Notes under the pieces: model-generated
Seen by the model: only the letters and a program-made list of their open reading frames with translations
Databases searched by the model: none
Told to the model about the DNA's origin: nothing
DNA from: a virus
Lineage: Duplodnaviria; Caudoviricetes
Direction: 5' to 3' (one strand)
Length of the DNA: 55,345 bases
IMG/VR virus record: IMGVR_UViG_3300044971_001115
Span: 1 to 55,345 of that record
Position numbers and translations under genes: made by a program
Shown here: one piece after another, positions 7,733 through 35,166 of the stretch
Layout of the letters: the number at the start of each line of letters is the position of its first letter
Position numbering within the stretch: position 1 is the first letter of the stretch

Positions 7733-10700
7733 ATGTCAGAATACCTAAGAAAAATCTTGGGTGCAGGCAAGACTCCCTTAATTAAATCCCAACCCCTTGC
7801 CGCACTTACCGCAGATGCTGGACCAGACATTCCCGGCGGCGAAGGTGCCAACAAAGGCTTCTGGCGTAAACAGCTACGCGACCCTAGAACTAAACAGTTC
7901 ATCCCTATGGATGCGTTTATCATATGTACGATAAATGTTCCAGGTGTAGGGATTTTCAAAGCTACCGGCCAGTTCAAGGGTAATAAAAAAATTGGCATCG
8001 CCACTATTCGAGTTGCTGGAAACAAAAATGTTCCAGACGGCGACTACCAGGTACCGCACACAGATGTTCTAGGTGCTGCCGAGGGTATGATCAAGCAGAA
8101 GGATCTAGACCGCGTACTAGATAAAGCTGACGGCGTCATTGACGACCCTAAGAATATTCTTCCGCCAGGAACCCCTATGGCTGGCGAATCGGTCAAAGCC
8201 CCCGTAGCTCTAAAAAAGGCAATCGACGGCGAAGAAGCTTTATCTAAAATCAAAGGCGAGGCCGCACTTGTTGCCAAAGAGGACGGACGTTTCCCTATTG
8301 CTCGTGGAGCAGGGGATATCAAAACCGCGGCTAAGCGTCAATACGCTGGAGTATTTGAGGCTTTAAAGAAAGAGCAGCCTGACCTAGTAAAAGACTTTAA
8401 CTCATTTGATGAGTTCTGGGCGTATGCCGACAAGAACATTGCTATCGACGCGTCTCAGCGTTGGGCAGACTCGGTAGACGAGATTCCCGAACTTACCAAA
8501 GCCACTAACCGAATCTATGCTCGTGATGTTCTTGGTATGGAACCAGACGGCCTAATCACTTTCTACCGTAACTCAATCAACCACCACAATGACCCAAACA
8601 AAGCCGCGGCCGGCTACATTTCGCTTGACCAGCGTATGGCCTGGAACTACAACTCCGACAAAGAGCAGTCTGGCCAGGACGGCCGCTATATCGTTAGAGT
8701 TAAGCCAGATGAGGTACTAGGTCTTCTAGGCTACAGCCGAGTTCCAGATGAGTATGGCGTTGTAGTTGGTATGGACGTCACGTCTCAGGAGGGTCGCTAC
8801 GAACGAGTAGGCGATCTAGCCTGGTCACCTCTAAACCCACTGATGGATCCGACTAAGACTCAGATGAGCGGCGGTGGCGACAGCTGGTTCCGTCAGTTCC
8901 GTCCAGCGTCTAGCTTTGACTTTCCTGTCTTAGACTCTAAGCCGTTTGAAGCTGGCGAAAGTTGGTCAGACTTCTATAAGCAGTTTAATATGCAGAAGGG
9001 CGACATCCCCAAGAAGTATGACGAACTGTTCGGAGAGGGTGCTTTTGATCAGGACTTCCCCGATAGCAGGGGAGTACCTAACTACAGTCGATTCGTAAAT
9101 AATGCTTTCACCGAAAAAGGTGGAAAGTACGCTTTTGATCCTCTATATCTTTCAACCGAGTTCCCGATGTCTAGTGCGACGTCGATGGAGCCTAACAAAA
9201 ATGACGAGCTCGATCTCGGTCTCAAGTTCCTATCCACCATTCAGGAACTTTCTGGCATCCCATTTATGGTCCACCGCAGCCACGATAAGAGCGACCCTCG
9301 CCTAAAGGTAAAAGAAGCAAAGACCAAAAAACCTAAGGCTGTAAAAGAGGCAGCAAAAGAAGTAGAGACTCCGGTTGGTTCCGTTGTTAAGGACCTAACA
9401 GGGTTCACTAAGGTCTCTGACCAGCTCGGCTCTAACAAGGGTGGACTATACAAAGACCCGATTACTGGTCAGCAGTTCTATGTTAAATTTGGCGACAAAG
9501 CTCGAATCGAGAACGAAGCCCTTGCGTCTGACATCTACAAACTAGCGGGAATCAACGCTACCGACCTACAAATCGGAACATTAGACGGCAAAGATGTAAT
9601 CTACTCGCCTTGGATAGAGGGCACGTCTAAAGATGTAAAAGATAAGATAATCCACCTCGCATCCACTGTAAACGAGAGAGAAACAAAAACTGATCCTAAA
9701 ATAAAAGCTTCTGTAGAAGAGGCTCAGCGGGGATTTGCTGTAGATGCTTGGTTAGCTAACTGGGACGCTGTAGGGTCTGCCTATGACAATCTAGTTTTTG
9801 ACAAAGATGGAAAGCCGCTCCGAGTAGATCCAGGCGGTGCTCTTCTTTATCGTGCTCGTGGTGAACTTAAGGGCGACGCGTTTGGTGATGAAGTAACAGA
9901 GCTGGACACCTTCACGCAATACTCTGGAACCCCCCTTGCCGGGAACACTGCTCTAGAACTATTTAGAAGTATGCCTAGACGCAGGAAATTTGAATCCGCC
10001 AAGATAGTCCACAAGATCACTCCGGAGCAGATCGAGCAACTGGTAGATAGCCGTATCTCTGATCCAGAAACTAGAAAAGTTCTTAAAGACCGTCTAATTG
10101 CTCGACGTCAGAACATTATTGAACGCTTCTCTCTAGAGGGTCTTGTCTCAGACAAGCAAGAAAAAGACGGAGACTCTTACGTAGACAAGGTCTACTATGA
10201 CGACATTCGGCGTTCTGAAGAACTTATGGCACCTGGCGGCCCTGGCGGTCCTAGAATCTCTACTGATGCCGGAGATACAAGCGGATATCTAGACCGATAC
10301 TTTGATGACAACGCTCCTCTTGTTGACGAGGTAGATGGTAATGATATTAAAGAAATTCTTCAGGCCACTGTAGTAAAAGATATGGTCAATACCGTCAACA
10401 AAGAAGAGGGGAACGATTCTTCTGCCAACGAGGTATTTAGAAGAGGCCTATACGGCACTTTAGTTGCTCAGCACAACATTGTCTACTCTGAACTTAAGTC
10501 TGAAGATTCTGACTTTGCTAATCAGTTTCCTACTTTTAACTCTTACTTTAAGTATGTTACAGAAGAGCTGGCGATCAGCGACAAACTCCTAGTTGGAGAT
10601 GTTAATAATAGCCTAGCCAGTGACTATAAAAAAGAAGCAGAGCACGCTCAGTCGTGGTCTACCTACTTTAGCCCGGAAAAAATGGCTCTTCAGAAGAAGA

Positions 10701-35166: not shown

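Follow-up and report, generated by a model that had tools for sequence, protein, structure and literature searches.

Giant multidomain genes between the portal and capsid genes of an uncultured phage contig: candidate head-packaged polyvalent proteins

The linear virus contig IMGVR_UViG_3300044971_001115 of IMG/VR, analyzed here over its whole length of 55,345 bp (the window), has a CheckV completeness of ~32% and bears every one of its genes on the + strand. Between its portal and major capsid protein (MCP) genes are five large open reading frames (ORFs), P0001 to P0005, of 3659, 648, 273, 2642 and 1575 aa, whose sizes, coordinates and location agree exactly with those in an earlier note on the sequence, which had considered the region a candidate capsid-packaged effector system. 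Here we describe these genes, in particular the two giants, P0001 and P0004, which are candidates for multi-enzyme proteins that are packaged in the head, trimmed at their N-termini and ejected with the DNA.

A variable cassette between portal and capsid genes

The large terminase (3441-4844), the portal protein (5498-7273; phrog_776, E 8e-104) and a 150-aa ferritin/Dps-like gene (7277-7729; Pfam Ferritin, E 2.2e-16) are followed by P0001 (7733-18712), P0002 (18924-20870), P0003 (20870-21691), P0004 (21782-29710), two small genes of 121 and 112 aa (29712-30077 and 30095-30433), P0005 (30439-35166) and the MCP (35236-37338; phrog_777). Downstream of the MCP are, in order, the major tail protein, an adaptor, the tape measure and the minor tail genes. 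We categorized P0001 and P0004 as putative polyvalent cargo proteins and P0005 as a capsid-maturation protease/assembly polyprotein.

Comparison of capsid proteins places the window closest, among named phages, to Actinomycetia phage DSL-LC01 (68% identity), the ~190-kb Microbacterium phages Cece, A3Wally, Pumpernickel, Big4 and Zooman, and Arthrobacter phage Atuin. A megablast search of positions 7733-30000 against phages returned zero matches, and a search of IMG/VR with a portal alignment found at least 554 relatives, 80 of which were retrieved for locus analysis. ORF maps have a fixed frame consisting of the portal, the Dps-like gene, at least one cargo gene, the protease polyprotein and the MCP, with a middle that varies, and this layout is matched in the cultured relatives and in eight IMG/VR genomes. 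The distance from the end of the portal gene to the protease domain, measured in the window and in eight longer IMG/VR records (G001 to G008), is largest in the window, at 25.4 kb, with the others at 19.6 kb (G001), 14.3 kb (G004), 12.5 kb (G003), 10.9 kb (G007), 10.2 kb (G002), 10.0 kb (G006 and G008) and 8.5 kb (G005). A cargo gene of smaller size is found at this location in the cultured relatives and in hundreds of IMG/VR contigs.

The gene order of G001 is the same as in the window. Its P0001 counterpart, however, has only 1819 aa, in which are found the N-terminal tag described below, the domain corresponding to P0001 residues 160-525, the kinase, one ADP-ribosyltransferase (ART) and two copies of DUF3626; the P0001 of the window has gained ~1800 residues. 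In G003 the P0003-like and P0004-like genes and both small genes are present and P0001 is absent. The cargo genes have a lower G+C content (P0001 0.452, with 0.444 for residues 811-3659; P0004 0.472) than the core genes (portal 0.536, P0005 0.507, MCP 0.519).

A single giant gene is located in the slot between portal and protease in each of the deposited phages Cece (gp68, 1654 aa), A3Wally (gp85, 1913 aa), Pumpernickel (gp82, 2235 aa), Atuin (gp71, 3113 aa) and DSL-LC01 (3289 aa), where it is annotated as "hypothetical protein" or "DNA helicase"; the window has two giants plus two mid-size genes, 7222 aa in total. The P0001 kinase is also found in the DSL-LC01 giant and the P0004 helicase in Atuin gp71. 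Since the succession of portal, giant multidomain gene, giant protease and capsid gene is already present, without comment, in these five deposited genomes, the architecture, of which the earlier note could not tell whether it had been described, is not new, and the window is an extreme case of it.

Domain content of the cassette proteins

P0001 begins with a leader (residues 1-29, with the site ALTA|DAG at 24-30) and an N-terminal module that consists of the RD motif and a small beta domain (7733-8152). An AlphaFold2 model of residues 1-840, computed from a 17-row alignment (pLDDT 73), has residues 1-42 disordered and strands across residues 62-115. Next comes a confidently folded domain at residues 160-525 (8210-9307; pLDDT about 85-95) for which there was no Pfam match and whose core, residues 239-339, is repeated at 970-1079 (nucleotides, nt, 10640-10969; E 4.7e-14 by windowed phmmer). 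The match lists in fold searches of the model were filled by the next domain, an atypical protein-kinase-like domain of the CtkA/CotH/PI4K/HipA type (9359-10162). Over residues ~547-815 its best VIA match is Helicobacter pylori CtkA (3akj_A; Z 15.4, root-mean-square deviation, rmsd, 3.8, 220 residues aligned), followed by CotH (5jda_A, Z 13.6), PI4KII-alpha (4pla_A, Z 13.5) and HipA (Z 11.9). Foldseek returned 331 matches at E<=1e-3, with CtkA and PI3K first and CtkA 3akl as the best (E 1.4e-6, TM 0.59 normalized to the target). Candidate kinase motifs, picked by eye, are FYVKF at 582, DAWLANWD at 671 and VDPGG at 698. The kinase of the earlier note is thus confirmed by the predicted fold. Two related loci encode this domain by itself, in a 238-aa ORF located upstream of the portal (L060, 7185-7901; L061, 4400-5116).

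Three stretches of P0001 match Pfam ADPrib_exo_Tox (PF03496; E 1.4e-42, 145.7 bits vs a cut-off of 23.4), which supports the ART motifs noticed earlier. A catalytic R, an S-T-S motif and an ExE motif define the R-S-E ARTs; SopF of Salmonella, discussed below, is also an ART. In ART1 (12524-13102) there is FRG at 1668 (R at 1669) and EDE at 1764 (ExE at 1764-1766), with TAATT instead of S-T-S, while ART2 (14678-15292) has YRG at 2392, SASTS at 2430 and EKE at 2481, provides the best Pfam stretch (2327-2517) and matches the Alt-like family phrog_802 at E 3.5e-20. ART3 (16118-16612) has YRG at 2852, SSTT at 2883 and EKE at 2937, and a weak PDB sequence match to the Vis ART. Windowed phmmer searches for internal repeats also recovered the three ARTs. 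A match to Arr-ms near residue 2125 (FYHAT) extends over 21 residues at E 0.1 and is a lead only, which we do not claim.

Between ART1 and ART2 is a ParB/Srx-like domain (13355-13657) with matches to phrog_3147 (E 2.4e-6) and phrog_1033 (E 3.3e-4). Overall, matches to the PHROG ParB families ranged from 2.4e-6 to 1e-3, and GHHR motifs are found at residue 1954 of P0001 and residue 407 of P0002. The ParB/Srx assignment of the earlier note is moderately supported, with Pfam ParB_N below its cut-off (E 0.021). The C-terminal 265 residues (17915-18709) form a DUF3626 (SopF-family) domain, at 33.2 bits on the isolated segment vs a cut-off of 27 (23.3 bits on the whole protein), with a match to phrog_8314 at 1e-9 and 0 matches when the segment was searched against PDB sequences. 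Salmonella SopF carries DUF3626 (PMC6682159), and a 466-aa gene of DSL-LC01 has the N-terminal module fused directly to this domain. We looked for HExxH in P0001 and found none. Pfam searches with segments of P0001, P0004 and P0005 gave mostly nothing usable, and those with 17 P0001-type N-terminal regions gave nothing.

In P0004, which has orthologs of 2485 aa in G001 and 2548 aa in G003, the N-terminal module (residues 1-124) is followed by a UvrD-type helicase (632-1376) with the Pfam matches UvrD-helicase (47.7 bits vs 23), AAA_19 (33 vs 25.1) and UvrD_C (32 vs 25.6), a PDB match to FBH1 at 9.9e-8 and a PHROG DNA helicase match, all in agreement with the helicase of the earlier note. Beyond it are a YDxDG module (1488-1530), a Tudor/SH3/KOW-like small beta barrel (1878-1955, nt 27413-27646), a long coiled coil (2142-2337; model residues 692-887) and a zincin-like domain (2344-2627) with HELQH at 2439. 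The barrel (VIA Z 8.0 to 4p5n_B, 69 aligned) is within the part of P0004 that the largest number of relatives share (~30 of 150 representatives).

The zincin call of the earlier note is moderately supported. HELQH and a downstream His are invariant in all four aligned sequences, down to 32% identity, and the VIA matches to domain IV of anthrax lethal factor (Z 6.6, rmsd 4.3, 163 aligned) and to PPEP-3 (Z 5.8) span the whole domain, at middling scores. Foldseek, in contrast, returned 0 matches at E<=1e-3 for the C-terminal model, a profile of the region (A8) found only three chance-level matches among PDB sequences (E 0.34), and a search of related loci with the P0004 C-terminus found zero relatives. 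The nearest ESM Atlas clusters to this C-terminus include one auto-named "DdrB domain protein", which is a lead only.

The long coiled coil of P0004 and the great length of the giants, together with the internal proteins of P22, T7 and phiKZ as precedents, would also suit a chiefly structural role inside the head or in an ejectosome, whether as inner body, DNA spool or conduit across the envelope, in which case the enzyme domains would be inactive or secondary. We consider this explanation very unlikely, as catalytic signatures are retained in ART2 and ART3 (R, S-T-S-like and ExE), in the kinase (Lys and D..N..D/DPG), in the zincin-like domain (HExxH) and in the helicase (the motifs recognized by Pfam). 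In addition, content varies freely among close relatives, for example 1819 vs 3659 aa for P0001, and so accessory effectors fit better than structural parts.

The two mid-size genes probably encode cargo as well. P0002 contains two Cys-rich modules, a ParB/Srx-like domain and DUF5824, with site-like motifs at residues 59, 185 and 561, and its pieces are separate ORFs in DSL-LC01. The Cys-rich modules (residues 87-317) each have CGNCVFF; one has its homolog at the C-terminus of a DSL-LC01 "protease" ORF and the other in a DSL-LC01 ORF annotated as a high-potential iron-sulfur protein, for which the Pfam HIPIP match is only 0.2. P0003, with orthologs in G001, G003 and G004, has the YDxDG module twice and a single site-like motif (ALVASG at 64). 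The YDxDG module that the earlier note had described is common to P0001 (1432-1473), P0003 (194-235) and P0004 (1488-1530), whose copies match one another by windowed phmmer. The two small genes (29712-30433) have no family matches; their reported association with the giants is supported by the fact that both are also 3' of the P0004 orthologs in G001 and G003, and one of the two is found in G007.

P0005 differs from the other four. It matches the PHROG head-maturation-protease families phrog_859 (1.6e-89) and phrog_18402 (1.5e-59), with an S78-like protease at about residues 750-930, and is colinear over its full length with its ortholog in Cece, gp70 (1548 aa), annotated "capsid maturation protease", and also with three consecutive DSL-LC01 ORFs of the same annotation. 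Windowed phmmer revealed repeats within it. RD..G.[FY] motifs are found twice, at 357 and 1416, vs 0.03 expected. The first, conserved in eight of nine aligned rows (the exception is the joined G001 row, which has a gap at this point), lies ~30 residues past a site and before a small barrel, which is the order of the cargo tag, and the second, conserved in 9/9, opens a C-terminal domain that is a separate ORF in DSL-LC01. On this evidence P0005 appears to be the lineage's conserved protease/assembly core and not variable cargo. The slot therefore still holds its protease, which the earlier note believed to be displaced, and the number of effectors is four at most, not the five that it had counted. 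The polyprotein is a single ORF in the window, Cece, G002, G003 and G007 and is split into two or three ORFs in G001 (L094/L095), G004 (L098), G005 (L099) and DSL-LC01 (L001), which could be due to real gene fission, frameshifting or assembly errors.

An N-terminal tag and a candidate cleavage site

The common N-terminal domain that the earlier note had ascribed to the giants was recovered by windowed phmmer, in which P0001 residues 36-127 match P0004 residues 13-105. In alignments the tag comprises a 10-30-residue leader, a site of the form [LIV]-[TVIL]-A-[AGSD], the sequence G.N(D/S)GANKGFWR.Q.RD..G(Q/R)W.EMG and a ~70-residue beta-rich domain, so that a basic peptide, G.N.GANKGFWR.Q.RD..G.W.EMG, is situated between the site and the small beta domain (together the N-module). 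The P0001 model shows this domain as a small beta structure, preceded by a disordered leader and motif; disorder of this kind is as expected for a peptide tag. RD..G.[FWY] occurs in P0004 (0.07 expected) and twice in P0005 (0.03 expected). The Q.RD..G.F motif of the earlier note thus holds for these two proteins and does not for P0001, which has a variant, or for P0002, which has only YRDGKW in its place.

A hidden Markov model of the N-module had ORF matches in 77 of 94 sources scanned. One of the 17 sources without a match is a sub-locus of the window, and 11 of the other 16 end <1.3 kb past the portal. When the tag profile (A4, 38 rows) was searched against 1.84 billion representatives, it matched 590 clusters at E<=1e-3, 394 at E<=1e-10 and 36 at E<=1e-30. 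In 121 of the best 150 of the 590, the module begins no more than 30 residues from the N-terminus; in two it begins at residues 31-120, and in 27 beyond residue 120. These 150 proteins range from 114 to 5432 aa (median 1446), with 49 of at least 2000 aa and five of at least 3659 aa; P0001 is therefore not the largest of the family. About 12 of them share the kinase of the window, about seven an ART and about 15 the helicase. Two tag-bearing relatives that we scanned have two UvrD-type helicases or a NUDIX domain, and one is named ArdC/DnaQ-like by its source. The N-module is at the N-terminus of Cece gp68, A3Wally gp85 and Pumpernickel gp82 (E 4e-21 to 1e-22) and internal in the DSL-LC01 giant (residues 186-292); Atuin gp71 matches its motif part only.

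To the extent that the literature searched and Pfam show, the tag and its Ala-ending site are undescribed and may be new. The N-module has no family match in Pfam, the literature searched describes neither these genes nor the tag or its site, and the giant gene is not discussed in the passages of the DSL-LC01 paper examined. The N-module could, however, be among the 40 unnamed domains of the polyvalent-protein paper (PMC5512222), whose supplementary lists lay outside our comparison.

We counted a strict site pattern, [LIVM][TV]A[ASG][GASD], with the expected numbers taken from 1000 shuffles. Strict sites are most numerous in P0005 (nine vs 0.38 expected), the MCP (three vs 0.30) and P0002 (two vs 0.12), with one each in P0003 (0.05 expected) and the portal (0.18 expected); P0001 and P0004 have none (0.51 and 0.36 expected), and the tail genes are at chance. 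With a relaxed pattern there are 11 in P0005 (7.0 per 1000 aa), three in P0001 (3.3 expected), two of which are in ParB-like stretches, and one in P0004, its N-terminal one. The xTA[ASG] motif, which the earlier note had proposed as a link between the large proteins, is not enriched in the giants (five vs 3.5 expected in P0001 and two vs 3.3 in P0004). An apparent depletion of sites in the giants was considered as well; it was not significant (0 vs 0.87 expected for the strict and four vs 5.9 for the relaxed pattern) and therefore we claim only an absence of enrichment.

The positions of the sites are informative. In 118 of the best 150 tag proteins a relaxed site lies between 30 residues upstream and 25 residues downstream of the start of the module, while control windows from the same 150 proteins contain a site in 4.5% on average (maximum 9.8% over 200 resamplings). 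The sites of P0005 are conserved across nine orthologs, often flanking indels. In the MCP a candidate maturation site, VAITA|GADIPG (residues 282-292, nt 36082-36111), is located at the end of a ~285-residue N-terminal extension, and VAITAGADIPG is identical in 46 of 47 non-redundant orthologs, with columns 283-292 invariant in the alignment (A6). This sequence resembles the N-terminus of P0001, ALTADAGPDIPG. The extension itself has a conserved helical segment at residues 22-103 and a very acidic, low-complexity stretch at about 110-250 that is variable in length. The hydrophobic-x-Ala|Ser/Ala/Gly pattern recalls the sites of herpesvirus assemblin.

A further site-like motif is present near the N-terminus of the portal, R..LTAAAAQ (residues 54-60), in which R54, T57 and A60 are invariant in eight aligned portals. 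This suggests that the portal N-terminus is trimmed by the same prohead protease, for which lambda gpB is a precedent. A 116-aa ORF in the interval between terminase and portal (4841-5191) has one strict site, VVTASG at residue 80 (0.02 expected).

The distribution of sites bears on whether the giants are true polyproteins, which the prohead protease or the P0004 zincin would cut into enzymes of one domain each after loading or injection. P0002 and P0005 are polyprotein-like, with sites at or near the borders of modules that DSL-LC01 encodes as separate ORFs; the C-terminus of P0004 has a conserved HExxH domain; and autoprocessing by the zincin domains of polyvalent proteins was proposed by Iyer et al. 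(PMC5512222). However, neither giant has a strict site, their few relaxed sites are as given above, P0001 is without HExxH, and the bodies of the 150 tag proteins have only about 1.0 relaxed sites per 1000 aa vs 7.0 in P0005 with a nearly identical pattern. We therefore regard cutting of the giants domain by domain as not supported, and the model as a whole as unlikely.

Another explanation is that the large proteins are not packaged and are instead late enzymes of the producing cell, which might act, for example, to exclude superinfecting phages, to shut off the host or to handle DNA. Their genes would simply lie within the late operon, and the N-module would be a regulatory or oligomerization domain. 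In its favor, N-module genes occur outside the slot in three loci, and a use in phage DNA metabolism is conceivable for the helicase and the ParB-like domains. This explanation nevertheless seems improbable to us given that the tag bears, at a fixed position, the site found in the MCP extension and P0005, that the tag architecture recurs inside P0005, and that the portal-adjacent position is kept in cultured and uncultured relatives. Moreover, proximity of ARTs to portal and terminase genes is a recognized head-packaged context (PMC9503650).

The explanation we favor, and consider reasonably probable as a whole, is that P0001 and P0004 are packaged polyvalent proteins that are leader-trimmed and ejected with the DNA as host modifiers. 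We read them as cargo because of their position in the head block, the conserved N-module on variable bodies, and the site common to the MCP extension and P0005. From these we infer that the two proteins would be made late as multi-enzyme cargo and built into the procapsid, the leader, site, basic peptide and small beta domain bringing them into the assembling head, a sequence of loading and then leader removal that is plausible. The prohead protease of the P0005 polyprotein would remove the leader at the site, in parallel with T4, where Alt and the internal proteins lose their propeptides to gp21. P0005 and P0002 would be true polyproteins, cut at many sites; P0001 and P0004, without internal sites, would remain whole as the virion RNA polymerase (vRNAP) of N4 does and be ejected into the host with the DNA. 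In the cell the predicted effector set, namely three R-S-E ARTs, the SopF-family DUF3626, the CtkA/HipA-like kinase, the ParB/Srx domains, the UvrD helicase and the zincin-like domain, would then be expected to modify host proteins and nucleic acids for takeover or counter-defense. The load-cleave-inject system of the earlier note is thus retained for a cargo role and leader removal, both as inferences, and not for cutting of the giants into domains.

Several observations weigh against this explanation. The cleavage specificity is deduced from motif statistics alone, and some instances of the motif, such as ALVASGG in the MCP, may be structural. The RD motif of P0001 is degenerate (RDPRTKQF). 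Genes with the N-module (576-1311 aa) are also located upstream of the portal in L034 (904-3105), L052 (996-4931) and L081 (3278-5008), and the slot between portal and protease is therefore not obligatory. No MuF (PF04233) was detected in P0001-P0005 and their segments at E<=1 or in 17 P0001-type N-termini at E<=0.05, a difference from many known toxins that are loaded into heads. The Pfam Peptidase_S78 match of P0005 is at 15.7 bits vs a cut-off of 21 (E 0.017), and a profile of the protease domain (A7) had 0 matches among PDB sequences at E<=10. The zincin and ParB/Srx calls are moderately supported. Finally, the literature searched yielded no virion proteomics, N-terminal or infection data for the lineage or its cultured relatives. 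A complex prediction for the MCP (A6) and the P0004 N-module (A4) gave "no answer" with a score of 0.00 and is counted neither for nor against.

Known packaged proteins and neighboring genes

Polyvalent proteins are large phage polypeptides that join disparate enzymatic domains and are encoded near virion genes; their packaging and injection have been predicted (Iyer, Burroughs, Anand, de Souza, Aravind 2017; PMC5512222). Their working definition appears, from sequence features, to fit P0001 and P0004. With respect to at least two disparate domains, P0001 has the kinase fold, three ARTs, the ParB-like domain and DUF3626, and P0004 has the UvrD helicase and the zincin-like domain; with respect to a late or virion-gene context, the cargo genes lie between portal and protease/MCP, with the terminase upstream and tail genes downstream. 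Polyvalent proteins likewise combine ARTs, kinases, helicases, ParB-like domains and zincin peptidases, and the zincin-like metallopeptidase (HExxH plus a downstream ligand) is a hub domain among them that is common but not obligatory (PMC5512222). Set against the available text of the 2017 description, the giants of the window have R-S-E ARTs, and their kinase is CtkA/CotH/PI4K-like, whereas the polyvalent kinase clade is without the C-terminal subdomain and comes from phages of Verrucomicrobia/Bacteroidetes (PMC5512222). Unlike polyvalent proteins, they come with no MuF or ArdC-N detected in this window, and their tag is without a Pfam match.

T4 Alt offers a parallel in processing. Alt is present in the prohead core in 40 copies, has a seven-residue propeptide that is cut by gp21, and is ejected (PMC9026906). 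As is proposed for the candidate cargo, it is a head-internal ART with a short N-terminal propeptide ending in a prohead-protease site, and in T4 the same protease site is found on capsid and core proteins, as for the candidate site here (PMC9026906). In this lineage the putative leader-site pattern is statistically strong at the sequence level. There are also clear differences: the site of T4, a myovirus, ends in Glu (L/I-x-E) and the candidate site in Ala; T4 cargo is 8-76 kDa and that of the window about 290 and 400 kDa; and the tag here is a folded ~70-residue domain plus a peptide, unlike the T4 capsid targeting sequence.

The antirestriction proteins DarB and DdrB of P1 are similar to the giants in being very large head-packaged enzymes (a helicase/methylase, and a ParB-like domain plus a zincin) that aid or protect the incoming DNA. 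Loading in P1 depends on Hdf/DarA. P1 differs from the window in phage type and loading pathway, and no sequence similarity was shown beyond the "DdrB" lead from the Atlas. DdrB is proteolytically processed (PMC5512222). The N4 vRNAP, with about 3500 residues, is packaged in the virion and leaves it through the tail (PMC13434306, PMC11445570), and size alone is therefore no obstacle to ejection; it also contains a zincin domain (PMC5512222). N4, however, is a podovirus with a single essential RNA polymerase as cargo, while the window has a variable set of modifying enzymes. In temperate phages, MuF-fused toxins and ARTs place an effector on a conserved head-associated N-terminal carrier just 3' of the portal (PMC5576092; PMC9503650). 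The carrier in the window is not MuF, as there was no Phage_Mu_F match at any threshold tried.

A wider reading is that the leader, the Ala-ending site, the RD..G.W peptide and the beta barrel together form a portable capsid-loading, and possibly ejection-priming, tag common to cargo proteins and a fragment of the P0005 polyprotein. The capsid would then be a programmable protein-delivery container, with a prohead protease of herpesvirus-assemblin-like V/L-x-A|S specificity, for which we found no tailed-phage report, and with the Dps-like protein possibly among the cargo. Its scope would be a large uncultured actinophage lineage with at least 590 protein clusters and cargo of up to 5432 aa. 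We offer this joint reading tentatively, as possible and, in all its parts together, somewhat doubtful. If true, it would provide a rule by which the proteins that this widespread lineage delivers to its host could be read from sequence, so that injected effector repertoires could be catalogued directly from metagenomes. It would also give siphoviruses an equivalent of T4 capsid targeting with which to load foreign proteins.

The candidate cleavage specificity is also relevant to a poorly characterized prohead protease family. The window illustrates cargo growth, with ~7200 residues of head-module genes that would be dispensable for shell building and four or more ART-type domains in one protein, which bears on the amount of protein that can be packaged together with DNA. 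The central claims lend themselves to direct testing, since the relatives Cece, A3Wally, Pumpernickel and Atuin are in culture.

The Dps-like gene (7277-7729), directly 3' of the portal, has homologs in up to 80 related loci, and its product is a possible further internal head protein. In 58 of 78 complete copies the C-terminus has the form ..W.WQ[IL]..[AS].LG plus two residues. Encapsulins hold ferritin cargo that carries a loading peptide, of which the Dps-like neighbor is a speculative echo. We did not adopt the C-terminus (..LGIR) as an encapsulin-like loading peptide, since the W.WQ helix ahead of it is an ordinary feature of Dps.

A scan of positions 17000-36900 for promoters and terminators gave no more sites than shuffled sequences, and a tRNA scan of the window found none. 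The tape measure protein (43163-46264) matches the endolysin family phrog_971 at 9.5e-22 and hence has a lysin-like domain. Similarly, a 201-aa ORF upstream of the terminase (939-1544) matches tail proteins with lysin activity in their C-terminal domains.

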